A DNA stretch of 62,297 nt, filler included, from Platydemus manokwari (taxonomy: Eukaryota): the NCBI GenBank assembly GCA_037951405.1. It is 6 parts of 6 records of this genome, joined end to end, with 100 filler letters (N's around TTAATTAATTAA, not from the genome) between each part and the next. Parts side by side here need not be neighbours in the genome. Positions count along the whole stretch, not along the records: positions 1 to 10,344 come from JBBMOY011142660.1; 5 more parts are not named here. One strand, given 5' to 3'. Made by a program: the position numbers and the translations under genes. Shown one piece after another: positions 1 through 53,989 of this stretch. The notes under the pieces were generated by a model, which saw nothing but the letters and a program-made list of their open reading frames with translations, was not told where the DNA came from and made no database searches. Positions within the stretch are counted from its first letter, which is position 1. Each line of letters starts with the position of its first letter.

Positions 1-1464
1 CATATTGTGATGGTCTGTATGCCAAACAAGCAAAATGTGAAAAGAACAGTAATTGATAATAATAATTAATCGAATATCTAATGAATTATTATATAATTCA
101 GATGAATAAATAACTGACACGAACGTGGATTGAATAAGTGTGAAAATAGTTGTAATATTTTGTTTAAATAAATGTTAATAGAACTGATTTCTTTATATTT
201 GAATCATTTGATGTATATATAATGTCTTGATATGGACAATCACAATAACATGGTTTGTAGGAGATATGGCAAATTCCATAATAAATTTACGAATTTATTT
301 TCAATAAAATAATTGTTGTTATCAAAATATTAGTTTATATTGAAGCAATCATTCATTGATCTTATTGTCTTCACATTGGTAAATTCTAAATATTATATTT
401 ATATATCTTGATAGTAATATTTTACAAATCATGAAATTGTTAATCGATTGCTCCTCCTTAATAAATAACTATTAGATATTATTAAAATGCAATAAAGTTT
501 TTATATGTATTCGACATAATTCTTAACATCAATCTTGTAATTCCTTCTAGCGATTTATAATGTGAATGATTTCAATGTGTACACTTTGTACATCAAAATA
601 AACACAACAAATTTCAAAAAATGTTTAATTGAAAATTAATATCAATACTTCATTATGTGTATTACTAAATATTGATCTGAAATTATTTCTTGAATATCAC
701 CTATATGTGTTTATTGATTATCATTCAACAAAAACAACAATTTAGTTTTGAAAATATCTCAATCATAATAAATTCCAAATGTTAGATTGTGATCAAATTT
801 AAATAAATAACTCCATTTTAAACCGATTTATACCAAAAATCAATGTGGTTAAGTGTTTGAAAAGTAGCCATAATAAATCTTGGTTTGCTTATGATTTTTC
901 CTATCGTTTGATTTCCACAACAATGTGAAGATTGTGATACAATATAAAATGTTTAACATAGAACAGTTTTCAATTGTCTTCTCAGAACACAAATCATAAT
1001 AAAACTTTTAGAACTAACGTAAGATAGTGATGTCAAATCAATTAAATAGATAAAATGTGTTTAATATTTGAGAAAGAAAATATCTAATCTACATGATTAA
1101 TAATCAAAAATTAAAACTAAAATATTTACAAAATCATAAACATAAATGTTTACTATATTAAATTAATTATTCAAAATGATGGCATTTACAAATAAAGAAA
1201 TTAAATAAATTAACATTGAATAATTATTTTTCTATCCTGCTATCATCACACTTGTTATCATTCAACAAATTATTTTTGTAATTAAAAATTAACATTTAAT
1301 AATATTTGATTCTAAACCCATTTAGAAATCCTAATTTTACAAAAGTTAGGAAAATAAGAAATAAATAGCTGATGAAGATGAAGTAAAGGATAAGCTTTAT
1401 GCGGAAATAGATGAACTACACATAAAACAGGTGCAATACTATCTTTTCCAAATTGTACAATAAA

Positions 1465-2113
1465 AGTCACTAGTTTTTTGGAATGCCAATTAACCTATAT
1501 AAGCTTGGCAGAATTTTACCAGAGGATGGAATCAATAAGAGACCTTCTAAGATCTACTAAGATGCAAAAAGAGAAAAGAGAAAATAGAAGCCATGAAAAG
1601 TAAGAAAAATGAAATAATAACAGAGAAAATGATATAGAAAGTATAGCGAATTAAACCGTTTAAATAGGAACAACGGGACCAGAAAGCTCTCGAGACATTA
1701 AAAGAATATCTAATACAAGAACCAGTACTTAGATATCCAAATATGAGCAAACCAATTCTACTTATGACAAAGCAGATATGCTATCGGAGCAGTTTTAGCT
1801 CAGCAGGAAAACGGGGAAAAGGATCATGCAATAGCCTACGCAAGAAGATGCCTAAAGAAGCATGAGAAAAATTTCGGGACAATAGAAAAAGAGACTTTGG
1901 CCATAGTGTTCGTGGCGAAGAAGTTTAGGGACTAACTATGTGGAAGGAAAACTATCCTTTATACAGACCACAGTCCCTTACAATGGCTGTTGAAACATAG
2001 AGAATCAATAAGTAAGCTCATTAAATGGGAATTAATATTGCAGGAATATGAGAGAAATTAAATATAAGACGGGTAGAGCAAATGCGAATGCTGACGCCCT
2101 ATATCGAATGCCT
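1465..2113 (+). pseudogene. Gypsy pol: RT thumb/connection and RNase H (frameshifted, with stops)
   Basis: Manual translation: FK*EQRDQKALETLKEYLIQEPVLRYPNMSKPILLMT / IGAVLAQQENGEKDHAIAYARRCLKKHEKNFGTIEKETLAIVFVAKKFRD*LCGRKTILYTDHSPLQWL / IKYKTGRANANADALYRMP. These are the Ty3/Gypsy RNase H motifs (GAVL.Q, EKE.LA, TDH.PL, N..ADAL). Confidence 0.92.
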
Positions 2114-2396
2114 CAAGAGAAAGGGGAAATTAGAGAAGAATTTGAAGATTAGGTAATTGCAATAAAAACTTGAAAAGAAATAGTCAAGGAAATACTACTA
2201 GAGGCAACCGTATTTGCGGTAATACATAGAGGAAAAGGACTACCAAGAAAGAACCAAACAGAAGATGACGATTTTACAAAACGATAAAAAACATGCTGGC
2301 TTTATATACAAAGATTGGGACGTGCATATAGGATAATGTCTATATGTTTATAGGAATACGCAGGATAGTACAACAAAGGAAATTTCCTTATATTTA

Positions 2397-2765
2397 ATGT
2401 ATTTAAGGGACAACAATATGTCCATAGATCTAGAATACGTACACTCATCTTCACAAAATATGGACGAAAAAGATTATAAAACAGAAATGCAGGAGAAAAT
2501 GCAAACGGCATGGAAGAGGGCCTGCTTGCAGATAAAATACACTCAAGAAAGTTATAAAGAGGCCTACGATAGGAAAGCCAAACTACATAATTTCAAAATA
2601 GGAGACCGGGTGTTAGTAGATACCCCACAACCTATCAAAGGATTATACCCGAAATTACAAAGGACATTTAAAGGATCTTATACGGTTAAAAAAGTAACTC
2701 CAACAAATTTGCAATTAAAAAGAAGAGGACCGGCAGGACCATTGATAGTCCATGCCAACAGATGA
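2397..2765 (+). pseudogene. Gypsy integrase C-terminal region (GPY/F-type module); HHCC and DDE core not seen
   Basis: ORF track: QESYKEAYDRK...FKIGDRVLV...KLQRTFKGSYTV...LIVHANR(MK), matching F..GD.V, KL...F.GPY and VH.NRLK. Confidence 0.85.
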
Positions 2766-3092
2766 AAAAGAGTTACCAAGATAGTACAAAGTCGTCACGA
2801 ATTGCGATCGAGAACCCAGACAATAGCATCAGTTACTTTGGGAAAAAGTATGAAATTACTCAAATTGTTTTGGATGCCATTATGCATGCTATCTTTATTG
2901 ATATACACAAATGCGAAAGAACTCGCAGTAAAAAGAGTTCTATTTTGAAGTAGACTCAACAAAAATCACCTCACATTGCAACTGTGAATGGGACCCAATT
3001 TTATCCATAGCGTTGCTTTTTAGGAAGATGCAACAGAGCCCAAATAAATTTAGGGGCAGCAAAAATGAAGGTTACGTTTAATAACCTAAAAC

Positions 3093-3755
3093 CATATCGT
3101 AATCATTGGCTAGGCCATAATTAGGAATGAAGACGATAGAGAATATCAAGCCAAGCAAAAGTTTAAAGTAAAAACGCGCATATTAAGAGCGCCAGTAAGA
3201 TATCACGTACAAACAGAGACAATTATATGGGCAATTATTTGGAATCCGGAAAGAAACAGAACGATACAGATACAAATAGGAAATCTAGTAATAATGCTGG
3301 ATAAAAACCATCAGGTACATAAGCTGCCTATGGAGAAACAAGGAACAGTTAAAGCTTCAATATGGTATCACCTATGGAATGCGGATTTAGCACGGTATAG
3401 CATACAGGACTACGACTAAACAAAAAACAAAAACAACACGACAGTGGGATTTATTCAGAAGATGGATGAAAGTCCAGATATGTCAAGCTAGACAGAGAAG
3501 AAAGAATATAACCTTAACGATGACGTCGATTTTTTGGATCACCGGTACTCGTACACTACGGATGAGTATTGTACAATACTGGTAAAAAGGGGACTCTACG
3601 CAGACTCTACCATAATATATATAGGATTAGTGATGATAATCATCATAATCCTCATCATAATTATAAATGCATTGACAAAGATTGTGGTCATATACACAAG
3701 AAGTGAAAGAAGGCGAGTCAGAATAGAAAGATGTCCCCAGTTGATAGAAATCTAA
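3093..3755 (+). pseudogene. env-like ORF: ectodomain, C-terminal transmembrane anchor and basic tail
   Basis: One frame (same as ORF 3534..3755) runs about 220 codons with only three stops: ...WNPERNRTIQIQIGNLVIMLDKNHQVHKLPMEKQGTVKASIWYHLWNADLARYSIQDYD*TKNKNNTTVGF...[37 protein letters not shown]. It contains N-glycosylation sequons NRT and NNT/NTT and lies after the integrase. Confidence 0.55.
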
Positions 3756-3859
3756 ATACTAATGTCGCGTCGCTAAATAAAGAGTTATATGTAAATGTAC
3801 AGTATAAAATTCATGGTTTAAGTTTATTTCATAAACAGAAATTAATAATAAATGATTAG

Positions 3860-3873
3860 TTTGTATTTTGCAG
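3860..3873 (+). promoter_or_regulatory. Candidate splice acceptor for a subgenomic mRNA of the downstream ORF
   Basis: TTTGTATTTTGCAG, a U-rich tract plus CAG in otherwise A-rich element sequence, ends 7 nt before the ATG at 3881. Confidence 0.5.
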
Positions 3874-3880
3874 ACAAACA

Positions 3881-5104
3881 ATGAGTACGAGGAACAAAAC
3901 TTCAATAAAGAACTTGCCAAAAATCCCCAAGAAGAAGACTCTTGGTCGTACAAAGCTGGTCAAGCCAAAAGTAGTTTTCAAGCGGATCGAAGCCTATATG
4001 GGGAAACACCATTGGCGGCAGGTGTATTTTGGTAACGTAATAGATATTCCCAACATAATTAAGAAAAGGCCGTCGAATATCGAAAAGACTTTATCCGAGT
4101 GGAGAACCCGGATGACGACCTTAATCTATCTTGTCTAATAGCGGACCAAGAAGAAATTGAACTAAATAACGTTTTATCCACGATTCAGGTGTATAGCAAA
4201 GAACTGGCTTGGAAGGTAATAGTACCTCCAGTGCCGGTAATAAAAATCAAAGGAAACAGCGCAGATCTAAAGATGTAATTAAGAACCTAGAAGACCAAAA
4301 GGAATGTGAGCTCTCACAAACTTTGAGCGCAATCAGCCCAAATGGCAGAAACCTCCCAGAAATCTAGAAGAAGAATTTGGAGACGTACCACAAGAGTACG
4401 CAAAAATTTACTATCATAAATCATTTCTACGGAAAGCTAATATTTGGTGCAGGATTAGTAGCAGTAGCAATGAACATCCTCAATTATGGGGGAGATCTTG
4501 TATACTCCCAAGTAATATCACCTAGGCCAATGATAACCGATTATAGAACGCAACAACACGGCCTATTAGACGAGATCATTGAAGGTCAAAAAGACGAACT
4601 GGAAGTTACAGACGAAGTCAACCACCTCCTAAGAGGGAAGATGGTAGTAGGATACAAGGTGCTAGAAGAGTTAAACGCACTCAGAACCACTATTAGAGAT
4701 ATTTGTGGCGTGCGATAATTATCCAACGCTCTAGCATTCCAAGAAGATGGAGTGAAACGAAGCGATTAAAGATTCACGCTGAACAAATTGGTGCACCACT
4801 ATCTAAAGCACAAACTCGCACAAAGATTTTAGAATTATGAACGGACGCATCAAGTGGAGGTCGTTCAAAGAATTTATCTGGCTGTAGATGGAAGGATAAT
4901 GGGGTGTTTTTATCCAAGAGGAAAAAGCAACTAACCACAGAGGCAGAAATCCAAAGGACACAGCCTCTAACAAAAGAAAAGAAGGAACGTATCAACCTTA
5001 TTCGGGTGGAGAAACCCGAAGGTAGAAAACGCAGTAGGAGTGAAACTCGAAACGATATTGACTTCGAACAAATCCCAACCCTCTGTCAGCAGTTTCAGAT
5101 GTAG
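3881..5104 (+). pseudogene. Retrotransposon accessory ORF: basic N-terminus plus REX4/ISG20/AEN-like DEDDh 3'-5' exonuclease fold (about 4400-4900), disrupted
   Basis: Reading ORF 4377..4718 through its stops gives VAMNILNYGGDLVYSQVISPRPMITDYRTQQHGLLDEIIEGQKDELEVTDEVNHLLRGKMVVGYKVLEELNALRTTIRDICGVR*LSNALAFQEDGVKRSD*RFTLNKLVHHYLKHKLAQRF*NYERTHQVEVVQRIYLAV, then RWKD after a frameshift. This matches REX4-family blocks S.VN..G.VVY, P...VTDYRT..SG, EV..LL.GK.LVGH, RDT, SL..LA...L and LY...W. ORFs 3881..4138 and 4904..5104 appear to be pieces of the same ORF. Confidence 0.7.
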
Positions 5105-5580
5105 ACATTCATCAGCTGCTATATCTTGGATATGCATGCAATCGGATATGCGAGGAAAGAAATGTCAAAAAAAGAAAGTTTTGACAAGACATTGATTATT
5201 AAATGTGAAATGACATTGATTTTTTTTGAATTTTATTTATTTAATTAAATGATAATATGTTATGAATAATTGATTTATTGATATGTTTTTAGATTGAAAA
5301 ATCTCAAAATTTTGTGAGGGCGAATAGACAAGTAGAGAAGAATTAACAAATTTAAAATTAACACTCAAATTCAAGACAGAAATTAATCACCAGGGAATGA
5401 ATTTAATCATCCAACAAAGATACCACAGGCATTTCCATCAATTTTATGAATTATAAGCAGAGTTATTTTTGTAATACATTAAAATAAAATTTATTCAAAG
5501 TTATATTTTTTTTATAAAATAAAAACAATATGAAAGCAACATAAAATTGTAAAGAAATTATTTATTTTAAGAAGGCAGAA

Positions 5581-6145
5581 TCTATTTTTTAATAAAAATT
5601 GTGTTAAAGGCAATTTTAGTCTAAATTAAGCAGCCACAGGCCAAGTTCAGTGATTGGGCTTAGAAAATATTAAACAATCAGGGAATGCACAGGAGGAAGG
5701 TGCATCACGAATTAAGTATATAAAGAGCGAGATAACAATCGTATTACCTTTCTGAAGTCGCAATTTTGATAATGATTATTTATATTAAAAGTATAGAAAG
5801 CCCTACATCCAGTGTAGTTGTAAGGGCGGTGTGTATCGTATATTAGAGGTATATTGTATTGGTTCTAGCAGTCAGATGAACCGGTTAGTAGTAGAGAAAA
5901 TATCGTAATATTAGTTAGAAGTAGTTTCTGAGTTAAGGTATTCAAGAGAAGTTACGGGACCTAGTCCGCGATTTATTGACGTAACCGTTTAGAAATTGTG
6001 ATCCCCATTGTTATCTTTAGACTAAATTGTAATATAAATGTATGTTTTAAACAGCGAGTGTTAAACTTGAGTGTGTACCGGACATAGGAGAAGAGTCAGA
6101 TAGAGAAGTAATCGAGTAGCAAGGTTTAGGCAGATCTACCTAACA
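5581..6145 (+). repeat. 3' LTR of the Gypsy element (LTR family A); start uncertain
   Basis: Purine tract TTAAGAAGGCAGAA before 5581, TATA-like TATATAAAG near 5716, end ...TAACA at 6145. Shares AGTGTAGTTGTAAGG (5811-5825) and the GGAC-CTA-GTCC hairpin (5957-5967) with the copy at about 10.6-11.1 kb. Confidence 0.6.
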
Positions 6146-6336: not shown

Positions 6337-8061
6337 TCAAATAATAATCGATCGAATAATTTTATCGAGGTTTGAGTTGTCATCATGTCTCGGAAGTGAT
6401 GGGCAAATGTTGCTTGGGAGTGCTGCTGGCTTTGGCATGGAATAGTATGTAATGATCTCATAGATTGTCGGAGTTGCAGTGGGGTTGGTTGATGGCATAA
6501 TGTTTCTAAGAATTTTCTTTGGCTCAGTTTGGAATTGTGTTCTGAGTTTGTAGTCCAAGGAAGATTCGTCCATTAGATGTAGCACTGACGGCTTGATGAC
6601 CTTCTTCGAAGCGATTCTGGATGTGTCGATGGATGAGATAGCTGTCCAAGTGGAAGTGAGCATTTGAATGAGACCCACGGTGTGACTATCCAGGTGGTAT
6701 TTGAAGCCCGTGCCTGGTCCGATGTATCTGCAGTAGCATTGGACGGCGAAGTCAGATTTGATGGCAATGTTGTGTGTCTTATTGAAGTGCTTCGAAACTA
6801 TTGTGGTGTTCGCAAAGGGGAAGCGATAAATCTTCGTGCACATGTTGCATTTTACGTTCTTATCATCAGTAAGGATCATATTGGCAGGGGTTTGACTGGC
6901 TCCACTGTAAATTATCGATAAGTATTTGAGATTTGACTTTGAGATTGGTTTGGAATAACTGGAGTTGTAGTTATGGTTTCGTCAGTTGAGGTAGAGTTAA
7001 CTTCCGAATCTGAGAGAGTGATTGAATCGTTGAGACGATGTCTTTTATTTCGTTATCCATCATAATTGGTTCGAAGTCGATCATTGGTTGAGTGGATAGT
7101 TGGTTGTGTGTTTGTCGTTGGTGCTGGCAGGTTGGATGTGGAAGTATTTACTGAATCTTTTCGATTTGATCGAAAATTGTTGAATTTTTTGCTGTGATGA
7201 TTTGTAGCAAGTTTCGGAAAATCAGACCAAGGGAATTGTAATGTGCATGAGGTGATGTGGAGTATTATTAACAGCTGGTTGAAATTTATTTGGCAATCTT
7301 GTTTTATTATTGTTTTCAGTGTTTGAGATGTTCGTAGGAGTTCGTTTGTTGGTAATGTTCTGATAGTATCTGAGATTATTATTGGGCATACTGTGGAGTT
7401 GAATGCCTTTGTGGATTGCTTGTCCATTTTGACTCTCATCGCTTTTCTATTAAATTCATTGAAATCGGCGTAAGCGGTCAAACTAAGTGCTGCATTAATG
7501 TGGCTGAGCACACCTTTTAAAAATTGGTTTTCGACGACTTTTCTGATTTGTGACGGCCATTCTGCCTTAAAATTAAAATTTTTCTGCTAGAGTAGAAAGA
7601 TGAAATTTGAATTCTTTGATCGTTTATTTTGTATTTTGAGTTCGAGATAAGAATTATTGTCGAATAATTCGACCCAATCTCCGCCAATGAGTTTTTCGGA
7701 AAGAATATCTTTGATAGTCATCTACTCTTTGATATTTTAGAGGCTAATTTGATTTTATGTCTCTCTTGCTGCTCCTATCAGATAGATTGGCAGTCGTTGT
7801 ATAATTTTTCGTTCTGCCCATAATTATGCGGTACTGTACATGGCGTAATCAGTCATGAAATCGATGGGGTCGCCACTGCATTGTTCGACTGGCAATTTCT
7901 GGCAGCCCGCGAACTCTACCGGATCACTTGGTCTAACGACTTGAATAGGAATTTGGTGTATTAGATTCGCTGGAATTTGATTAGGAATTTATAATAATAA
8001 ATTATTATTTTTTAAAGATTGAAAACATAACGATCGGATCTTCTGAGTTAAAGTCCGGCAT
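6337..8061 (-). pseudogene. Retroelement gag-like (capsid) ORF followed by BED-like and C2H2-like zinc fingers; no pol seen
   Basis: Minus-strand translation: PVEFAGCQKLPVEQCSGDPIDFMTDYAMYSTA*LWAERKIIQRLPIYLIGAARET ... ENQFLKGVLSHINAAL (gag capsid pattern F.G...DP..F...Y...W...LP.YL.G.A and F..G). Then a Ser/Thr-rich linker, CNMC-x16-HFNKTH and CYC-x11-HLDSH (6682-6849). Confidence 0.6.
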
Positions 8062-8556: not shown

Positions 8557-10344
8557 CACTGGATATACCAGCTATTTAATATACCTATTTCTACCAAACC
8601 AGTCAAAATGACTGGTGCATAAGAAAAAAGGCTTTTTCCCGTCTATATTTACTCTTACAAAAGACAAAAATAAAGTTGAACAATATTAATTATAATAGAT
8701 AAATGGATTTACAGACATTGCCAATTAACAAAACACTTAATTGTTTGCAGTTTTTTGCTCACAATTTCTACATGTGTAGATTTTGCTGCGTGCACACTTT
8801 CCGAATAGACTTTTTTTGCATTTATTGCAAATATTTGTAGTTTTATTGTTATTGCAATATCATATTTGTCACCATTTTCGTACAGAAACCGTGGCATTTG
8901 TGGTTGGTATATTGACTTCGTGTGGTTTTTGCCTTGAAATCTGATATTCTGAAGCAAGTTCTTCTGCTAATCGAAACAGAAAGTCTTTTCGTGAGATATT
9001 TTCTCCTGTTGTGTTTTTGTACAATATCCAGCTATTTATTACGGCTAAATCTAAAATATTGAAAAATACTTGAAGTGGCCACCTTCTGAAACCTGATTTC
9101 ACCGTATATTTTAGTGCCATTTGATCAGTAACATCGACGCCAAATTTAGTATTATTATGAAATGATACGGTTTCGGGTAATTTATTTGCAGCTTTATCAA
9201 TTTTGATGTGTTTATGTTTTGTACTTAGTATTGGTACAACAACGTTGAGAAACGTGCCATGTTGTCTTTTTTCAGTTTGCAATTTTTGGCAGCTCCCCCT
9301 TGTTTGCGCGTATTATTCCAAGCAACTCAGTATTTTTAGATTTTAATTTTAACGCTAAAGGAATACTTGTAAAAAAATTATCAGTTGTTACGGTTCTACC
9401 CTTCATGGTATATAGTTTAAGAAGTTTCATCACGACAATTCGCTTAGGGGGGTTAATGCATTTCGTGTCTCGTATTTTCATAAATACGGAAAGCCATTTA
9501 ACACACATTTCGTCTTTACATCGGACGCCAACCAAATTTTTATGCCAAATTTTTGGGGTTTGTTTGGCATATATTGAGTAAATCTGCATCTGGCCTTTGA
9601 TGGAAAAAGTTGCTAATCCACGGTAATATTAGCTCCCGGTTTGAAGCAATTTTTAATGTTTTCAATAAATTTATCCCAAACTGCTGAGACTAAAGCGAAC
9701 TTATCTGTCTGCAAACTTTCACTCCTCTGATTTTTTTTGTCGAAAGGAATGCCTTCAATTTTTCTTGCGTAATTGTCCAGTTTTTCCACAAAACTCGAGA
9801 CGCTTCTAACTCAGAACAAATTCGAATAGGTTCCAAAATATGATTGTCAATCAGTAATATAAACGCACTACTTAGATTCCCGTTCATAATGTTTCTTTAA
9901 GCATGTGCTATTGGCCGTGTACATCTTTGAAAGCACTATGAAGTGGTGATCTACCAGCAATACCTCCTTCAAATCTCGTCCAAATAGTTCCGTCTAAAGC
10001 AATTTCAGTTTGCTGATTTGGTATGTTACTTCCACATTCATCTTCAGAACTTGAAGGGAATCGCATACATCCTCTTGTGTGTTTGTTTAGAATATTTTCG
10101 CAATAGCTGTCACTTGACTGATCTATATTGCCTTCATCAGGAATTTCATCATCACCACTTTCGATAATAGTACTATTACTTTCACTTTCTACATCTGAAC
10201 ATTCCAGAGGTATGTTCATTGCATTTTCTAAATATGTAGAAAGTTTTGCTTTTTGACACTCTTAGGGGCTCAGAATCACTATAAAAATTTTGTCTATAAG
10301 AAAAATGTTGCGAGTTGAACAAAGCTAGAAACAAGACTGAACGT
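8557..10344 (-). mobile_element. piggyBac-superfamily DNA transposon, degenerate; 5' end lost at the gap
   Basis: TTAA at 8553-8556 followed by the terminus CACTGGATATACC. Subterminal hairpin ACCAGTCA-AAA-TGACTGGT at 8598-8616. Transposase remnants lie inside. Confidence 0.85.
8737..10219 (-). pseudogene. piggyBac (PGBD4-like) transposase, frameshifted
   Basis: Acidic N-terminus with DGTIW; GRTVTTDNFFTSIPLA; HNNTKFGVDVTDQM...RRWPLQVFFNILDLAVINSW; C-terminal Cys-rich domain read through stops (W*QI*YCNNNKTTNICNKCKKSLFGKCARSKIYTCRNC), stop at 8737. Confidence 0.93.
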
Positions 10345-10444
10345 NNNNNNNNNNNNNNNNNNNNNNNNNNNNNNNNNNNNNNNNNNNNTTAATTAATTAA
10401 NNNNNNNNNNNNNNNNNNNNNNNNNNNNNNNNNNNNNNNNNNNN
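10345..10444. other. Assembly gap / artificial contig linker
   Basis: N44-TTAATTAATTAA-N44, identical at all five gaps. Confidence 0.98.
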
Positions 10445-10587: not shown

Positions 10588-11126
10588 TTAAGAAGTACGA
10601 ATTTAGTGAATATTGAACTTAATAATTAAATTGGAATTGAACATAACAATTTTCAACTATAATCGGAAACTGAAGTGTACAAATCAAATAATAAGTTAAA
10701 ACAGCAGAATCCATACGATAGTGATTTAGCACTTTATTTTTGAGCAAGACTACTAAAAAGAGGTAATGTGCTTATTTTTAGTGCAATAGATCCTGCAACG
10801 AGTGTAGTTGTAAGGATGTAGAGTATTGAAGTGTATTAGCAGCGTGCAATTTGGTGATTGTTTAGCATTACATTGTAATATTAGCCAAAAGTTGATTGTG
10901 AGATAGGGTAACCTGAAGAAGTATCGGGACTTAGTCCTAATGTTATTCACTTGACTTTATTATACGAGACTTGTGTCATGTGTGTATTTTTCGCGGTGTA
11001 AATTGCAATAAAATATATTTTATTCCCACGTATTATTAGTTTTTACTCTGTGAGTACCTGAGTTAGAATAGGACTAGAATTAATTAGAGGTAGACACGAA
11101 CCGTTAAGTTATGGCGACTTTAAACA
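10588..11126 (+). repeat. Diverged second copy of LTR family A with upstream purine tract
   Basis: TTAAGAAGTACGAA (compare 5567-5580), AGTGTAGTTGTAAGG at 10801-10815, GGAC-TTA-GTCC at 10927-10937, end TAAACA at 11126. All are collinear with 5567-6145 at an offset of about 5.0 kb. Confidence 0.6.
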
Positions 11127-11829
11127 TAATAAATTTATTTGTTAATGATATTTCTTTGTGTCATTTTCTTAGTATAGCTTACAATAGTTCAGGTCATAAT
11201 TCAGGTAACATACTCTTCACACAAGTTATGAAAGGTCTCTAGGACTAATAAGAGCTAATATAAAATATCAAACCAAAACATATATTTAATACAAATAAAT
11301 CAAAGAATATTTATTGACGTTTTGATCAGGAATGAATTAAGAAATTGAAGACTATTTTGAGATTTTCATGACAAGTGAATTGAGAAATATTTTTAAACTT
11401 ACCAATATAATTGATTATTTACAATTTATAGATGCAGATAGATAATTCGATTAATTATTTACATATTTTAGATCATGATTGTTGATTTGAGTAGTTTTAG
11501 GCTTTGACTTTAAAGAGTTTAGATTCTAGAAAATATGTTTAATAATAAATACAAGGCATGATGTAATAGTTTCAAGTAGTTATTGTGTCACACTGGGTGA
11601 TTATTGAAGAGGGAAATAGAATGTTTTTTATTTTATAATTTATTCGAAACTCTTTTAAAATCACTAACTACATTGCTCTGAAAATTTTTTTAAAATCAAT
11701 CGAATTTCAAGAAAAACCAATTATTAAAATGGTCAGAATCATCCACAACAATTGTGACGATTATTAAAAATTTAATTTAAATATTAATTTTTGAAAGAAT
11801 TTAAAAATTTTAAAATATGATTTTCATTC

Positions 11830-16099: not shown

Positions 16100-17300
16100 A
16101 CTCTTATTGCAGCTACCTCCAGTATTCCAACCTCAATTTGTAATCTTCATAGGGTCTTAAATTATGGAATAATGGTTTTGAAAAATTAACAGTCAATATT
16201 ATATATTTTAGTCTCAAAATATAAAATTGTAACAATTTTCTCATCTGCACATTTCCGTCGAAGTTATATGGTGGTAGATGTGACGTGTATTTTTTATTTT
16301 TCTCCTTAATCAGCATCACAAACTTACTCTTAGTAGACTTGTGTCCTTTGATTATGATTATACATGTCTTTTTGAATTATGTACTCCTTTCTTTCCAAAT
16401 TTTATGTTTACTTTTAGATTTAGTTCATATAACCATCTGCAAGCAATGCTATCTATTTGAATTTTATTTCTAATTTCTCGAGTCCAGCTGTAAACTGCTT
16501 GGTTATTTATAATCATAAAGTGGGTCTTGCCAAAAAGCGATTTTCTATGTATATGGAATATTTTAGAACAGATTAATGTTTACCATCCGTATCACAATCT
16601 AATGTGAATACTTGAGAGACATTTTAGTGTAATGAGCGAGGTTTACGATGCCTATAGATCCAAATGAGCTAGTGTAGTAAGAATATTAGTTTAATCTTTC
16701 TGTTAATTCTATGTTCTTATAGTTATCATGACGTTAGAATTTGTTAAATGCATAATATCTTAAAAATTAAAATGATTGTTTGATGGTCATGCACTACTCA
16801 ATTATTTTATTCGTGGATTGCTGTACTCAATTTTGATGATAATCCACTAGCAGTTTCGTGAAGAAATAAATCTATTAGATCTCCTTAATTTTATGTTCAT
16901 TCGTCTTTTTATCACGAACTGCTTAATACTATTTAATTATATTTAATTTTTAAATCTGCCTTTGGTTACACTGATTGTAATCTTTCCTGCATTAAGGTTT
17001 TATATTCGGCAGTTTGCATATGCTGAGCTGTTGGTTATTGGTAATTTAGTTCTTTTGACATATTATTTCTTTTTAAATACATCATATAAAATAGAATTTC
17101 TCAAGCCCTTTCGTGTACTACATTTCGATAAAGAAATAGTCACAGGTTTATATATAGATCCCCAACCTCGTAGTCTTCTCCCACTTTAATATATAACATT
17201 AATTAACATAACTTTAAAATTTGCCACCAGCTCACCTGTATGCCGCTCATCATTACATTCAACGTCTGAGCTGACTGTTCCATTGACTACCTTAGACTCT
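16100..17300 (-). mobile_element. Possible highly decayed non-LTR retrotransposon remnant
   Basis: Only weak motifs in plausible order: AAY..LVA, ISLSKCST, YYTSSFGSIGIVNL, ACRW...KRH. Many stops. Confidence 0.3.
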
Positions 17301-18640: not shown

Positions 18641-19206
18641 TGTTGTGGTATCCATGATATATGGTCAAGAGTCTCACCCATTTCTGAAATGGTGACAGAA
18701 AATAAAATTACTGGCAATATTCTAAATCATTTCATCACAAAGAATGGTTATCAAAAAAATCAGATGAAAGACAAACATAATAGTAGTAACCCACCAAAAA
18801 GACTGGTAGATGTTCGTGAAATCCAACTCTTTTATAGGCTTCTCATGTGTGTTCACTCAATTTCTCGAAGCTTCACTTTTCACAAATCATTCTGTTAACA
18901 AACTTTCTCACATCTCTCTTTGCCGTTGGTGTATCTCGACGTTTGTGGCCTGTTGCTGTTTATCGAGTTAAAAATATGGATTTGATTGGCTATTGCCACG
19001 TTCACATATTGAATCTATGTGGGTTATTTCCATTACTTTTGAGGATATTTTACTTGTTTTTAATACCTTCCAATCACATATACTTGTCCTTGAATTATGA
19101 AAAATGTGATAGAAATTAATATGATGTTAGAGAATCAAGTACTCTGTGAAGGATAATGATGAACAAATTTTCTCTTCTACTAAACAGATTATTTCCATTT
19201 ACAACA
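18641..19206 (-). repeat. Solo-LTR-like repeat, family C copy 1
   Basis: Inverted termini TGTTGT...ACAACA. Minus strand AAGCCTATAAAAAGAGTTGGATTTCACGAACATCTACCAGTCTTTTT (18796-18841) closely matches 53661-53706. No target-site duplication found. Confidence 0.65.
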
Positions 19207-25000: not shown

Positions 25001-26112
25001 ACATACTACAATTTGATTGGTTGAGAATATTTCAATATTAAGTTTTATACCATTTTAAAGCTAAAAAATAAGTCAGAAATAATGTTTGTTCATGTTATTA
25101 ACATTATTATTTATAATTTCTACCATAATTATTAGCCCAATATAATTATATTTTATAAATATAATGTGATTCGATACGTCTTCCATAAAAATATATTTCG
25201 ATTATAATTATCATAATTTTTTATATTATTATTATTTGTAAATATTAATATAGCTGTTATTATTATTTTCATAATTATTTAATATATTTGATAATAATAA
25301 TAATTATTATATTAAATAATAATAAATTTGCATTAGGTGCAAGTAAGCGAGAGTCTGTCGTTGAATATTTATTTTTATTCAATGATGCTATTGAATAGGA
25401 TATTCACACCAGTAGTTGTGCAATCACCTTGATTTATTATGGAACTTCTGAAGCATGATCTAATATCGTTGCACAACGGGTAATGTCAAAATCGTTCATT
25501 CATTAAATTCATCGACACATGAATTGACTACTCAAATCGATATTCATCAGCTCATTGATACATTGTGATTTTCAAATCTCTATTTTTTATCATAGACAAT
25601 ACCAGTGAAATACGAGAGGTATAATACGTAAACATTTATTGTTATTATTTACCGAGAAACAAATGTTCATATAAAAGGATAATATTATAAATGAATTGGA
25701 AACAAAATAAATAAACAATTTATTTACCTTCTTTTTTCATACCAGCCAAGAAGCATTTTCTGAGACGACAATACTGGCAATTGTTTCGTCTCTGGATATC
25801 CACCACACAATCACCATCCAAATAGCATTGATATAAGCTTTGATTACGAATCGATCGTTTGAAGAAACTTTTGCAACCTTCACAAGTGTATTGGCCGTAA
25901 TGTCTGCCAGTACTCTTATCACCACATACCTTGCAATCTGGTTCTGATTTCTTGATGGATTTATCTGCACTTAAATTATCGGTAGATGATCGGCTGTCAC
26001 TGTTGTTGAGATCGGGAATGGCGAATTGTGAACAACCGTCAGTCATTAAGCATTGATCTAAATTCATGGGAGTATTGAACAAGTATAATGGGTCATCTTT
26101 AGTTTCTTGCAT
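22045..26112 (-). CDS. Nuclear receptor, NR2F (COUP-TF/seven-up)-like; exons 26112-25728, 24740-24439, 23112-22932, 22472-22045 (431 aa)
   Basis: DNA-binding domain [30 protein letters not shown]...[17 protein letters not shown]|AVQMGR (P-box CEGCKS; COUP-like GMRREAVQRGR). Ligand-binding domain motifs [26 protein letters not shown]|DLYGLS, VIEEILF. All introns are GT-AG with phases 1/0/1; CDS total 1296 nt. First ATG after an in-frame stop is at 26112. Confidence 0.9.
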
Positions 26113-26418
26113 TTGATTGTTGGGATATTTGAGGAAATATGACAATTAATGTGCTTTCTGTAGTGCAATTGGAGGATATTTAGTACCTTTTAGTCGTAAA
26201 CCAATAACATTTAAGCAACATCAATGAACGGTGTGCGCGCAACTCTGTGCCTATGGTTGCGTCGATTGATATAATTGTTTTTTGCCATGCAAGCTTTGCA
26301 GTTATGTAATAGGTTTATGATTGATTAATAATAACTTGGGAAATTCATTGTGGCAATAAATTATATCAAGATTCGATGGAAGACTCAAGAAAAGAGTGCT
26401 ATAAATTGTCAGTAAAAG

Positions 26419-38859: not shown

Positions 38860-40480
38860 AACATTAAAATATTTTAAAGAAGAAACATATGATAATCTTT
38901 TAATAATTGAAAAAGGAATAAGGAGTGGAATTTCTGGAGTACATGGAAAAAGAAGAACAGTTTGTAACAATAAAATAACAAATAAAATAACAAATAAAAT
39001 AACAAATAAAATTACAAACCCAAATTTTGAAAGTTCTCGGGAATTAGAATATTTTAAAGGAACACATAAAATATTATGATTATAATTCATTATATTCCAG
39101 TTGTATGTGATTACCTTTACCAACAGGAGAAATGTAAGTAGTTGAACCAATTTATACACCTAGGGAAAAAATCAATCAAAGATTAGAAAAGTTAATAGAA
39201 AAAGAAGAATATGGTTTTATATATGTTGTTGATTTATTATATCCAAAAGAAATACATGAGTATACAAAGAACTTTCCATTTTGTCTAGAAAAATTAAAAA
39301 TAGAAAAAGATTTATTATCTCAATATCAAGTGAATAATCTTATGAATGAAACAACTGAAAAATTAGTTTTAAATCAGTTTGATAAAAATAATTATGTTAT
39401 AGAAGAAACAATGTTAGATTGGTTTGTTCAACACGGAATGGAAGTAAAACAATTTCATAAAAAGTTAAAGTTTAAGAAATCCAAATGGTTGGAACCATAT
39501 ATAATACATAATATAATGAAAAGAAATGAGGCAAAGAAGGTAGATACTTTGGGTGATTTTTTCTATAAATTGTTAAATAATTCAATTTATGGAAAAACAC
39601 TAGAAAATATTAGAAATAGACAATACATAGAAATTGTAACATCCCCGAAAAGATTTCAATTATTAGCTTCTAAACCTTCATGTGAAAGATCTAAGTCATT
39701 TAGTAACAATGTCGTAGCTTGTCATGTGAAACAACCATAAATATGTTTTAATAAATTTAATTACATTAGTTTTACAGTTTTAGAGTATTTAAAATATTTA
39801 GTGTATGAGTTTATATATGATTGTTTAAATATTCATTGTAAAAATAAATATGAAATTCTCTATAGATATTGTGATTCTTTATTTATTGAATAAGAAACAT
39901 TGAATGATTTAACAAGTAAATTAAAAGATTATATCGAACCTGATGTTTTATTTAAATTAAAAGATGAAAAGCCCAAGGCTACATTTAAGCAGTTTGATCG
40001 TATAATATCTAAATTACATGCTTATTTATTAAAAATTGAAAACTTGAATGTGACTATATTTGCCAATGTATGTGTAGTAATATATATTGTATGTCAAATA
40101 TTAAAGAATGCAGAAAAAGTATTTATAAATGTAAATGTAAATGTAATTCTAAAACAACAAATCATTGTAGGTGTAAAGACTCTTGTAAATGTGTTATTTT
40201 TTATAAACGGTTTAATGAAATAAATTCATGTTTGGATACAAAAATAAAATAATTTGATTCCGTTTTACTGGAAAATATTACAATATTAAAAACAAATTTT
40301 GGTTTAAAATCAGAAAATCATAATATATATTTATTTTCCCAGGAAAAAAATGGCTATAGACCCATTTGACGACAAACATTTAATAGAAAATAATGGTATA
40401 GTAACATGGCCATATGGTCATCAATTAAAATGTTTAAGATGTGATAAATGGATTAATAAATTAGACATAGTAAGAAACAA
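38860..40480 (+). pseudogene. Polinton/Maverick protein-primed family B DNA polymerase, C-terminal part, disrupted
   Basis: IIEKGIRSGISG; YGFIYVVDLLYPKEIHEYTKNFPFCLEK; KLVLNQFDKNNYVI; FYKLLNNSIYGKTLENIRNR (motif B); YRYCDS at 39861-39878 (YxDTDS-like); DPFDDKH...TWPYGH C-terminus. Confidence 0.88.
38968..39012 (+). repeat. Tandem 12-mer (AATAAAATAACA, about 3.5 copies) inside polB
   Basis: Encodes NKITNKITNKIT in ORF 38825..39079. Confidence 0.85.
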
Positions 40481-49000: not shown

Positions 49001-50729
49001 CAAATTTCTTAAAATCAGCGGTTTATGGACTTTCAACACGACGCATATTAGATTAGCGGACAATATCCTTTACACAGAAATCCGTCAATTCTAAGAATCA
49101 AAATCATTTATCAACATCATAAATATGTATTTGGTAAATGACCCATGAAAAAGAAATCAAATATCCATGACGTAAGCTAGCAGTTTTTGGCGATTCATAA
49201 TGTTGTCAATGGTCTTGAAGTAAACATGGCATACTTCATATATTGAATCATATTTTTAATAATATTGTAGGTAAATTTAACCTTTCCCTTCAAACAATCA
49301 GGATGATTAACAATTTTGACATGAGAATAAAAATGTATTTGACTTTTTACTTAATTAATCATTTGATCTGAATTTCACCTATGCCCACATACATACATCA
49401 AATTTAAAAATAGCTCGTATTCTAAAGTGGATCATCCGTTCCAAAATTTTTACTCGTGTTTATTTATCGACAACTTCAATGAATTTTAAGTGCCATTTAT
49501 AAAATTATATGTGCACTGTTTAAGTTGGATAAATATCATCAAATCTTTATTTTATTTTAATAAATAACACGTATAACCATTACCATTGTTAGTTCAATTC
49601 TTAAATATGTTAAGTGTAGTTGGTAAGCTTCTTGTTGTCTATTTTAATAAGTACCAGAATTAATATTAATCCCACATTTTATTATTTATTAATAATAGTT
49701 ATAAATTTTCTTCATCACAACACATAATGAAACGATTGTGAAAATTCATGGATTTTGTATCATGTTGTACCAATAAGTATTTACATTTTTCGAACAATAT
49801 TTGTTAATCAAAATTAATTAAAATAATAAAAAATGTCGATCAAAATAACGAAAACTGTAGGCTGGTATAACCATTTGATAAATATGTCAATAAACATTTA
49901 TTATACATCCATATCTATATCAATCCCTGTAAAAATTTACTAATCCACTTCATAATATAATTGATCAACAGTCAGGTTAACTTCAAAACTTTGACCTTGA
50001 TTTTTATTTCAATTTTCTTAATATTATCATCTACCAACATTATACCTCGAAATGTTTTTTTTAACTGGTGGATTATACAAATTTATAAATTTATATACAA
50101 ATTCAAAAAATTATAATTTTATCAGTAAATAATTAAAACCGATTGATAATACTGTTTCATTTAAATAAGTGTTTATATAGAATAATTACCATGCAAATAA
50201 AATTTTCTAGAAAATCTATTAAATAAATATAATAATAATATTTTGATTTTCTAAAAAACTATAAAGAAACTATTTTATACTTAAATGATTTCAAATTGAC
50301 ATTTGTTGTCACCAAAATTATTTAATAATCAGAATTTCTTAATTTGCTATTTCTTATATGAATGTGTGTATACACTACAATCATTACAAGCTCATGTTAC
50401 AAAAAATAGAAAAATATTCTTATGCATTTAACACATACATTACCAAAGAAATTTAGAATATTTTAAGTCTTATAAATTTTATTTAACAAAATGGTTTTCA
50501 ATAAGTATAAAAATGAATTACAATTATTTATTTCTCTTAAATTTAAAATAAAATAAAATGTTCATATAAAAATTTGTTTGTAACTCTTATTAAACTCAAG
50601 GTATCTAGGGTGATTTCGTCTGGACTTTTTCGACCTATGAAATTCGATTTATTATTAGAAAGTACGTATTTCTATATTTATATATCGATAAATAGCCACA
50701 TACAAGAATTTGTTTTAATTTTTGTAGCT

Positions 50730-52199
50730 ATGAATGATGTTACACAACGAAGTTGTCCAAAACAAGTTATTGGAAAAATTGATAAATTTAATAAGTCATC
50801 ATTCAATTCAAATATGATGGATGGAATAGATTCAGAATGTTCCATTAAGATAAAGGAAAATGATTACAATCCTCAAAAATATTCTGTAAATAAAGTGATG
50901 GAAGCAACTTCAAATACCTTAAATAAAATAAAAATCAACAAGCTTCATTTCATTGACATTGAAGAAATATCTGTTCATGATCTGGAAACTAAGTTGAAAG
51001 GTAAAAATACGATATGCTTGATAGACACAAGAGATGTTAGAACATATAAAAATGGTCATGTGATAAAAGCAGAATTATTTAATTGTACAACAAGAACAAT
51101 GATGATGAAAGCGAAAAAGAATTGGGATAAATTTTATCAGAGTCGAAGTGATTTTGAAACTGTTGTGATTTATAATCAGAAAGGCGAAAAATCTCAACAT
51201 TTGACGGACTTTTTGGAGCATCTACGAAAAGATTTCGATTGCACATACTTTGTTAAAGGTTATTTTATTTTTTTTCTTGTGTATTACATAATACTTTAAT
51301 TAATCGTACTTTTAAATTATTAGATTTATATATCATTAAAGGGTTTCTTAATTAACTTTGAAAATGTTTTTAAACAAGCCATTTTGATTTTCAATTAGTT
51401 TTGCTCATCGATTTGAAAAAATGATTTACCATTTAGTAATCTTATTAATTTTTGAAATTTAATAATCTATAAACGAAATTATTCATTTGCAATTTTAGCT
51501 GACGTTGAACAAATTGATTCAATTAGTCAGTTGCAATCTTGATTTTCTGGAAAAATCAAAATACAAAGTACTTGTTCATTGCATTTATTTCAGTTGTAAT
51601 TGTATTGAATATAATGATTAAATTCAACATTTTTGATTCAGATATATTTAAATTTCATTTATTATAGGTGGCTATGAAGAATTTATAAAACATTCTCAAA
51701 AAGAATTTATCGAATCTAGCATTCCTGAAGAAAAAATTGACCAGTACCATTTCAGTCCGACCAATGAATCAAATAGGTCTACTGATGTATTAAATGCAAC
51801 TATTTCTGAAATATTACCATATCTATACCTAGGTAATTCTAGACTCTTCCATTTATATTATAGCTAAATTAAAAAGTTTTTATTATTTGATCTACATATT
51901 GATTTAAATCGACTTGTATTGAATTTGTATTTTTAAATTGTTACTATATTTAGAATGACGTCATAAATATTTTTATTTTAGTGGGCGTTATTTAATATTA
52001 ACATTATTTCTTAAAGGTAATGAAATGGATTCCAATGATATTGACGTTTTGAGAGAAAAGAAAATTACTCACATTTTAAATGTGACGACTAATGTGCCTT
52101 TTTATCGTGAAGATCTGTTTGTATACAAGCGTCTTTCAGCCACTGATTGCAATTTGCAAGATATGCGTGCGCATTATGATGAAGCAATTAAATTTATAG
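50730..52199 (+). CDS. Dual-specificity MAPK phosphatase, DUSP10/MKP5 (puckered)-like, 3'-partial; exons 50730-51258, 51668-51832, 52017-52199
   Basis: Rhodanese/CH2 domain (LIDTRDVRTYKNGHVIKA...VKG|GYEEF) and phosphatase domain ISEILPYLYLG|NEMDS...HILNVTTNVP...YKRLSATDCNLQDMRAHYDEAIKFI, closely matching DUSP10 (ILPFLFLGNEQDA, YKRLPATDS). Phase-1 GT-AG introns. The catalytic HCxxGxSRS exon was not found. An acceptor just before the ATG allows an upstream exon. Confidence 0.88.
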
Positions 52200-53262: not shown

Positions 53263-53989
53263 TGTAACAGGAAATAATTATACAATCAAGCCCTAAATTA
53301 AATATATTGATTAAATATTATTTTGTATATTAATTGTTTTGTTTGCATCCCGGATAACAGGAAAGTACCTCCGATACTTATAATTGACAATATTCTGTTA
53401 TAGTGTCGATTATTTGGATGCCACATTTATCTTTTTTATTTTCGACCACTTGTGTCTTTAAAAATTTAAATAATCATTCAGTTAGCGATACAATCAATAC
53501 TTTTGTTAGTTTCGACCGAGCATACACAAAAAATGGCAACAAACACAGATATCCACCAATGACACGAGAGATGTGCTAGAAATTATTAATACAGCTTTGT
53601 ATAAACGAAATTTATCTAATGACAAGCGAGGCTCTGGAACATCAAGTAGACACACACAATAAGCCTATAAAAGGAGTTGGATTTCAAGACCAACTGCCAG
53701 TCTTTTTTGTTTGGTAACCTTCATTCTGTTCTGTGACTTTTGATTGATTTTTCTGAAAATCAGTTTTTATGGTTGTGTTTCTTTCTGTATTCAACTTTCT
53801 TCTGCTGATTCCACCTTCAGTGATACTTTATTATTGTGTTGTGGTACGATTTTCATTGTATCTACTACAGAGCTTAGTCTGTAATTCTTTGTAATTAAAA
53901 TTATAATTTTAACGAAACATGGAAAGAAAAATTCATGGTTTTTAGTTTATAGACGACCAATATTTTTCAAGGTCTCAGCTAGTGTGACA
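53263..53989 (+). repeat. Solo-LTR-like repeat, family C copy 2
   Basis: TGTAAC...GTGACA termini. TATA block 53661-53706 and GAGAGATGTG are shared with the reverse complement of 18641-19206; both start TGTAA..GGAAATAAT. Confidence 0.6.

Follow-up and report, generated by a model that had tools for sequence, protein, structure and literature searches.

What is a nuclease-like gene doing inside an LTR retrotransposon, and could its product still cut when the element was active? The question is raised by the stretch at 3881-5104, which an earlier note had read as the disrupted cargo ORF of a Gypsy element, related to the REX4/ISG20/AEN group of DEDDh 3'-5' exonucleases. Positions are coordinates of the window, that is, the whole 62-kb stretch of DNA that was analysed, made of six contigs joined by N spacers; the finding lies in contig 1 (1-10344). 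The artificial spacers (N runs around TTAATTAATTAA) lie at 10345-10444 and at four more places, and sequences across them are not true neighbours.

The Gypsy context claimed for the ORF was borne out, since pol pieces lie upstream of the cargo within a stretch that reads as the 3' portion of a decayed Ty3/Gypsy element on the plus strand (1430-6145; Table 1). The RNase H matched Pfam RT_RNaseH (PF17917, E 2.6e-28) on 1780-2055 and RT_RNaseH_2 (E 3.9e-5) on 1668-1862, and the decayed pol also matched the RT/RNase H structure PDB 4ol8 (E 9e-4), which we take to be the Ty3 RT. The RT remnant at 1430-1670 was recognised by eye only, and a Pfam search of it gave no relevant match. The domain order is that of Ty3/Gypsy elements, with the RNase H ahead of an integrase C-terminal piece whose own match is weak; GPY/F is the label that we presume to apply to the block in that piece. 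An integrase catalytic core was not recognisable upstream of 2337, and a Pfam search of two frames of 2053-2341 returned no match. Judged by these domains, the element is a Ty3/Gypsy LTR retrotransposon in a broken copy, which is 5'-truncated near 1430. At the truncation point, a short stretch on the plus strand (1370-1420) reads ADEDEVKDKLYAEIDEL and resembles, by eye, what we take to be a LINE endonuclease motif. The minus strand at 16939-17172 carries a C-terminal remnant of a related Gypsy integrase, with 42% identity to 2307-2540; the REX4-like profile described below, run on six frames of the 62-kb window, detected no exonuclease remnant in its neighbourhood. A search of the window for tRNA genes found none.

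Table 1. Features of the decayed element in contig 1 (window coordinates).
Feature	Position	Strand	Basis or remark
Decayed pol: 5'-truncated RT end, connection, Ty3/Gypsy-type RNase H	1430-2110	+	Pfam, PDB; RT end by eye
Integrase C-terminal region with GPY/F-like block	2337-2765	+	Weak Pfam match, MLVIN_C, E 0.044
Decayed ORF of ~300 codons, predicted type I membrane protein	2850-3755	+	Start resembling a signal peptide; single transmembrane helix; short tail of basic residues
Site resembling a splice acceptor: CAG after a pyrimidine tract, 7 nt upstream of ATG 3881	3860-3873	+	Seen in sequence; acceptor use predicted
Cargo ORF, N-terminal part: basic N-terminus and middle region, over three frames	3881-4400	+	30% Lys/Arg in first 50 residues
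Cargo ORF, REX4/ISG20-like DEDDh exonuclease domain, five catalytic positions non-canonical	4401-4890	+	Stops 4716, 4767, 4830; profile and PDB matches
Cargo ORF, basic C-terminal tail, after frameshift	4895-5104	+	23% Lys/Arg
AT-rich putative 3' untranslated region	5105-5601	+	GC 22.7%, like host flank
LTR candidate, 544 bp, TGTTA...TAACA ends	5602-6145	+	TATA-like box at 5717, poly(A)-signal-like motif at 6031

The cargo had been placed between an env-like ORF and the 3' LTR. The upstream ORF does show the architecture of an errantivirus env, with a signal peptide (judged by eye), an ectodomain and a single C-terminal transmembrane helix (hydropathy peak of 3.44 within the 3492-3752 piece), together with two sequons and a RILR site, and an LTR candidate was located downstream; however, no env family was matched and only one LTR is present in the contig. 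Searches of Pfam, PDB and, with a 101-aa piece, the Atlas gave no meaningful match for this ORF, the queries being decayed pieces. The ORF can thus be called env-like in architecture only, and, short as it is for an env, it may represent an unrecognised accessory protein family of its own kind. Part of it is common to other copies, and a spacer of 125 nt, which ends in the splice-acceptor-like site, separates it from the cargo ORF.

At the other end, the LTR candidate is probably the 3' LTR of the element. Summed contig depth jumps from 56 to 387 at 5600, where the LTR starts. No clear polypurine tract adjoins it, purine runs in 5401-5601 all being shorter than 9, and no 5' partner was found within contig 1, where this is the single LTR candidate. 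The link from cargo to LTR in other copies comes down to one joint (5568-5609), a weak one whose short side consists of 27 AT-rich letters, for which reason it was rejected as proof of LTR linkage. An LTR-like relative of 5602-6145 (69% identity, gapped; nhmmer E 1.6e-10 on 10760-11128) lies on the plus strand of the second contig at ~10600-11128, and it is probably the solo LTR of a sister family.

The cargo ORF itself follows the RNase H, the integrase C-terminus and the membrane ORF, and runs from an ATG at 3881 to a stop at 5104. It has 408 codons and is decayed, its reading being interrupted by four in-frame stops (4365, 4716, 4767 and 4830) and by some three frameshifts, placed by eye near 4070, 4260 and 4890. 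The description of a disrupted ORF of about 400 codons with a Lys/Arg-rich N-terminus was therefore accurate; REXO4 and ISG20L2 have a basic N-terminal extension, as the cargo has. Pfam returned no meaningful match for the N-terminal part (3881-4400), pieces of which were matched by other contigs, and none for the C-terminal tail (4895-5104). The blocks quoted earlier are all in the sequence. Among them ILNYGGDLVYSQVISPRPMITDYRT with TDYRT (4536-4550), EVNHLLRGKMVVGY, FTLNKLVHHYL and RIYLAV share one frame at 4368-4890, but RWKD does not, since it is read in another frame after ~4890.

Does the core of this ORF descend from a REX4/ISG20-type nuclease? When the frame 4368-4955, read with X at the stops, was used as a phmmer query against PDB sequences, it matched ISG20 (E 3.3e-7), ISG20L2 (E 1.8e-5) and, weakly, plant SDN1 (E 0.02). 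Cellular relatives were collected through a motif scan of metagenome contigs, which gave at least 117 loci, many of which were REX4-like and had their catalytic motifs intact; a motif filter retained the 27 with the full domain. In this set the P, TDYRT, G and the ExoI and ExoIII motifs were fixed by the search pattern and the filter, and their invariance is partly by construction. A profile of the 27 cellular REX4-like domains gave a single match in six frames of the 62-kb window, at ~4470-4810 (E 7e-13), and the cargo reached 47.9 bits. The best of 1000 shuffled versions reached 7.6 bits and the reversed sequence 1.1, with 880 of the 1002 sequences in this comparison exceeding the cut for being reported. 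An hhalign comparison of the cargo domain with the cellular REX4-like domains gave a probability of 96% and an E of 1.2e-9; its confident local alignment spans profile positions 27-136, with ExoII within it and ExoI and ExoIII outside. The cargo domain was on average 21% identical to the 27 cellular proteins (range 16-25%), which are 51% identical among themselves, and it kept the structural residues G, P, TDYRT, G, G, L, RD and L. Together, the PDB and profile matches upheld the proposed homology, and we conclude from these comparisons that the cargo core is a REX4/ISG20/AEN-type DEDDh homologue.

The checks that had been suggested for this homology fared unequally. The profile search succeeded with the REX4-like profile, but the Pfam RNase_T match was weak (E 0.03-0.08). 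A structure model built on the alignment of the 27 homologues (pLDDT 67) found ISG20L2 and ISG20 as its best matches, but this model is alignment-driven, and the single-sequence model of the cargo domain was uninformative (pLDDT 41). The phylogeny against cellular relatives failed to place the cargo, which fell on a very long branch (~10) without a supported group, in a tree set that held no identified host sequence. A DEDDy or RNase D identity of the cargo was rejected: the PDB matches were only to ISG20, ISG20L2 and SDN1, the sole Pfam lead was RNase_T, and the catalytic residues are absent.

The substitution of the acidic catalytic residues, also claimed in the earlier note, was complete in the window copy, as none of the five canonical positions (D-E in ExoI, D in ExoII and H-x4-D in ExoIII) was found. 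The 23 in-frame codons before 4470, which make up the ExoI region, contain no Asp or Glu. The idea of a hidden DxE before 4470, or of a hidden H-x4-D at 4791-4890, in another frame was rejected, as both were absent in every frame. At the ExoII Asp site the window copy has Glu, and a Glu also lies one codon before that site (4665). Across the other copies the state of the catalytic sites was compared at ExoII only. The middle base of the codon was G in three of three, and therefore both Asp and Glu are excluded there; the residue in these copies is most likely Gly. At least two base changes separate the window copy from the canonical codon at three of the five sites under a gapped alignment, or at two of the five under an ungapped mapping of ExoI; the ExoIII Asp site is two base changes away. 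The probability that decay alone altered all five codons was estimated at 0.0002-0.005, for a private divergence of 7-15%.

The earlier note had offered two explanations for these substitutions, a nuclease-dead protein or simple decay. The first is favoured and the second disfavoured by the non-acidic ExoII site in all three other copies, by the sites that lie at least two base changes from canonical and by the low probability that decay alone altered all five codons. Since the ExoII Asp site is non-acidic in those copies, the loss of catalysis is probably older than the decay, and we consider it likely, on the strength of these codons, that the cargo had already lost catalysis when the element still worked. 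Participation of an active enzyme in processing cDNA or RNA, which had been raised as well, thereby becomes less likely.

Whether the exonuclease ORF belongs to the element or landed once in this copy was addressed with the contigs of one sequencing run, from which the window probably comes, aligned to the window at 80% likeness. The region 4380-4860 was covered by five contigs, one of them matching the window exactly and the remaining four at ~81-91% identity over the aligned pieces. Absence of the segment from other copies had been set beforehand as a result that would overturn the reading, but these four contigs carry parts of the domain, one of them also the integrase C-terminus. This contig, of 2393 nt, covers 2434-2885 of the integrase C-terminus together with the exonuclease pieces 4480-4519 and 4624-4708, and was equated across two comparisons by its same length, depth and strand. 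Another, of 2885 nt, covers the RNase H and the membrane ORF with its transmembrane region, and from the side-lengths of its joints we deduce that it continues into 4078-4130, 4385-4412 and 4864-4888. In its skew towards A the cargo ORF also resembles pol and not the flank (AT skew of 0.27 in the cargo ORF, 0.31 in pol and 0.04 in the flank). None of the other copies was seen intact, and two or more of the other contigs carry breaks or deletions as well. The exonuclease ORF is thus very probably element cargo rather than a one-off insertion. A one-off processed pseudogene of a host REX4 was rejected on the four other contigs, the 21% versus 51% identity and the excess of synonymous differences described next.

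The differences among copies suggest that the ORF was once kept as a protein. Other contigs that cover the stop sites lack the stop at 4716 (two of two), at 4767 (two of two) and at 4830 (one of one), the stop at 4365 being outside the region compared. There were 83 differing places, of which 40 were listed; with four stop-codon rows left out, 36 were classified, each site singly. Among these listed differences 16 of 36 were synonymous, where 26% would be expected (p 0.015), and 20 of 36 fell on third positions (p 0.005), both figures being indicative only. Among the differences listed as private to the most diverged contig, 8 of 11 were synonymous; the corresponding figure for a 1146-nt contig that has its own indels was two of nine. 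The pattern is consistent with selection of the cargo ORF as a protein, and it is to be taken as indicative only.

Relatives outside this genome were sought in several collections. Word-based protein searches with the exonuclease frame found none among 768 longer candidates or among 22 of near length, the same search with the integrase piece found none among 103 longer candidates, and exact look-up of ten ORF pieces in the collection gave 0 of 10. Scans for related loci, with the exonuclease in viral and metagenome contigs and with the integrase piece in viral contigs, returned none, and none of the 16 matches from a motif scan of viral contigs was homologous. Among the matches listed, 133 motif-scan loci had no tblastn match to the RNase H, the RT end, the integrase or the membrane ORF; one weak N-terminal tblastn match among them (E 0.005) was taken as chance.

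What, then, might a disarmed nuclease have done for the element? We suggest, tentatively, that a captured nuclease fold acted as a non-cutting RNA-binding protein that shielded the element RNA from host 3'-5' exonucleases. The gene would derive long ago from a cellular REX4/ISG20-type 3'-5' exonuclease, placed after pol and the membrane ORF, and its catalytic residues would have been lost while the element was still active. The protein may have been made from a spliced subgenomic RNA with the acceptor-like site at 3860-3873, its basic tails could have directed it into the nucleus or the nucleolus, where the fold, disarmed as it was, could have bound structured RNA or 3' ends; once bound, it would block active REX4/ISG20-type enzymes and so shield the element transcript. 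The relevant passages of PMC5388505 describe a D94G mutant of ISG20 that is inactive, still binds the HBV epsilon stem-loop and blocks binding of the polymerase, a precedent for the cargo, which was probably an RNA-binding pseudonuclease. The same passages assign RNA binding by ISG20 to the ExoIII motif (PMC5388505), and this motif is poorly conserved in the cargo, which counts against RNA shielding. If the protein is taken to be catalytically dead, shielding of the element RNA becomes slightly favoured as its job. A wider form of the proposal, in which a lineage of animal Ty3/Gypsy elements carries a small membrane protein together with a disarmed REX4/ISG20-type nuclease as a decoy, a mimic of an ISG20-like restriction factor, against host 3'-5' exonuclease defence, is in our view doubtful.

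The evidence for a dead, selected cargo applies equally to a reading in which the disarmed fold was a protein scaffold, a decoy for the piRNA machinery or a particle-assembly partner of the membrane ORF instead of an RNA shield, and the poor conservation of ExoIII, the RNA-binding motif of ISG20, speaks for it. Maelstrom and EXD1 are described, in the passages of PMC5408684 on this family, as inactive DEDD derivatives in piRNA biogenesis. On the other hand, the TDYRT loop and the basic tails are kept, which would fit contact with nucleic acid, and any protein partner is so far hypothetical. REX4/ISG20 is not known to be a piRNA factor, and we regard the reading as a whole as rather unlikely. 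Only one of the five catalytic sites was compared in more than one copy, which leaves some room for a working element that encoded an active 3'-5' exonuclease, trimming its own RNA or cDNA ends or host small RNAs; the copies seen would then come from a damaged lineage, or neighbouring acids would substitute, such as the Glu one codon before the ExoII site. Under the ungapped ExoI mapping three of the five sites are one base change from canonical, and rotifer cargo nucleases retain their catalytic residues according to the passages of PMC5408684 that concern them, trimming having been proposed for the rotifer DEDDy ORFs. However, the first strand region lacks any acidic residue, the ExoIII Asp is two changes off, five hits through decay have the low chance given above, and copies that are 81% identical share the non-acidic ExoII site yet show the synonymous excess; we hold an active enzyme to be unlikely.

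A functionless passenger, either a processed REX4-like pseudogene copied inside the element or a locus duplicated as DNA, would agree with all copies being in one genome with none seen intact, and with the lack of relatives in the protein, viral and metagenome searches; the 5' LTR is absent from the contig, and there is no target-site duplication to compare. It is at odds with the synonymous and third-position excess among copies and with stops that are not common to them, as well as with a base skew that agrees with pol. Moreover, a normal REX4 after ~10-19% nucleotide decay would still be far more similar to cellular proteins than the cargo is at 21% identity, and we consider a passenger very unlikely.

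The RNA-binding pseudonuclease that we propose has partial precedents. DEDDy cargo in LTR elements of bdelloid rotifers, mentioned in the earlier note, is confirmed by the passages of PMC5408684, PMC6431247 and PMC5718144 on Juno and Vesta, whose ORF3 is a DEDDy exonuclease common to Athena/Terminon. As in the present element, an LTR retrotransposon of an animal has, downstream of pol, an additional ORF for a DEDD-superfamily 3'-5' exonuclease of putative function. In contrast, the rotifer ORF3 is described there as RNase D-like, with its invariant residues intact (DEED) and in place of env, whereas the cargo here is REX4/ISG20-like, lacks the catalytic residues and follows a separate membrane ORF; the term 'DEDDh' occurs 0 times in PMC5408684. 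RNase D-like cargo of nematode BEL/Pao elements, mentioned alongside the rotifer case, was not found in a full-text search of the literature. According to the relevant passages of PMC9587614, KolobokD transposons carry a DEDDh (DnaQ) exonuclease resembling exuperantia, TREX and ERI1, and so share a DEDDh-type nuclease as animal transposon cargo, but they are DNA transposons and their nuclease is not REX4/ISG20-like. Errantiviruses, the env-carrying Ty3/gypsy elements, likewise have a membrane-protein ORF after pol, but their env is of F type or HSV/gB type in the corresponding passages of PMC13524379, and the ORF of ~300 codons has no such match; 'exonuclease' occurs 0 times in the text of that paper.

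Compared with the cellular REX4/REXO4, ISG20, ISG20L2 and AEN proteins (PDB 1wlj, 7yw5), the cargo has the same block order and spacing, the TDYRT, the LxGK-x-VVG segment and the RD motif, but it is only 16-25% identical to the cellular group, its catalytic positions are non-canonical and it lies inside a retrotransposon. It resembles ISG20 D94G in the loss of the ExoII Asp, the aligned site being most likely Gly in the three other copies, and differs from it, as far as that mutant is described in PMC5388505, in that D94G was made in the laboratory from a host antiviral protein and keeps ExoI and ExoIII intact, whereas the cargo is altered in all three motifs and belongs to a mobile element. 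The earlier note knew of no REX4/ISG20-type cargo in Gypsy, and our full-text search of the literature likewise found no REX4/ISG20-type or disarmed nuclease cargo in an LTR element; Repbase, Dfam, subscription journals and supplements are outside its scope, and an annotation may exist. What is known is thus the DEDDy cargo of rotifer LTR elements, and what appears new, none having been found in the literature, is a REX4/ISG20-type, disarmed cargo in Gypsy.

ISG20-family enzymes are treated as host antiviral nucleases in the passages of PMC5388505 cited above, and other DEDDh nucleases are reported, in the relevant part of PMC10123124, to restrict retrotransposons. If the fold was captured and kept past the loss of catalysis, this would implicate REX4/ISG20-type trimming as a pressure on invertebrate LTR elements and make the cargo a testable candidate antagonist. 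In addition to active DEDDy enzymes, the nuclease cargo of retroelements would then include a DEDDh pseudonuclease, on the evidence of decayed copies in one genome.

Several other features of the window are worth recording. Just after the LTR, the minus strand of 6337-7586 holds two ORFs, one with a weak BED zinc finger match (E 0.0065); the start is multi-copy, and this is possibly a hAT-like DNA transposon. It is followed on the same strand by a decayed piggyBac-like transposase at 8869-10261 (DDE_Tnp_1_7, E 5e-7 on 8869-9309). A nuclear-receptor exon with a C4 zinc finger (25720-26142; Pfam E 5e-29) lies on the minus strand at 25720-26145 and identifies the host, whose DNA is AT-rich, as an animal. 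On the plus strand, 39138-39740 encodes part of a type B DNA polymerase of the protein-primed kind (DNA_pol_B_2, E 3e-5), possibly a Maverick/Polinton or related remnant, and 50547-51299 is an ORF with a rhodanese-like domain (E 4e-6), perhaps an exon from a gene encoding a phosphatase. Two contigs match each other at 75% over ~120 nt in inverted orientation (18736-18852 and 53650-53771), which is probably a dispersed repeat.
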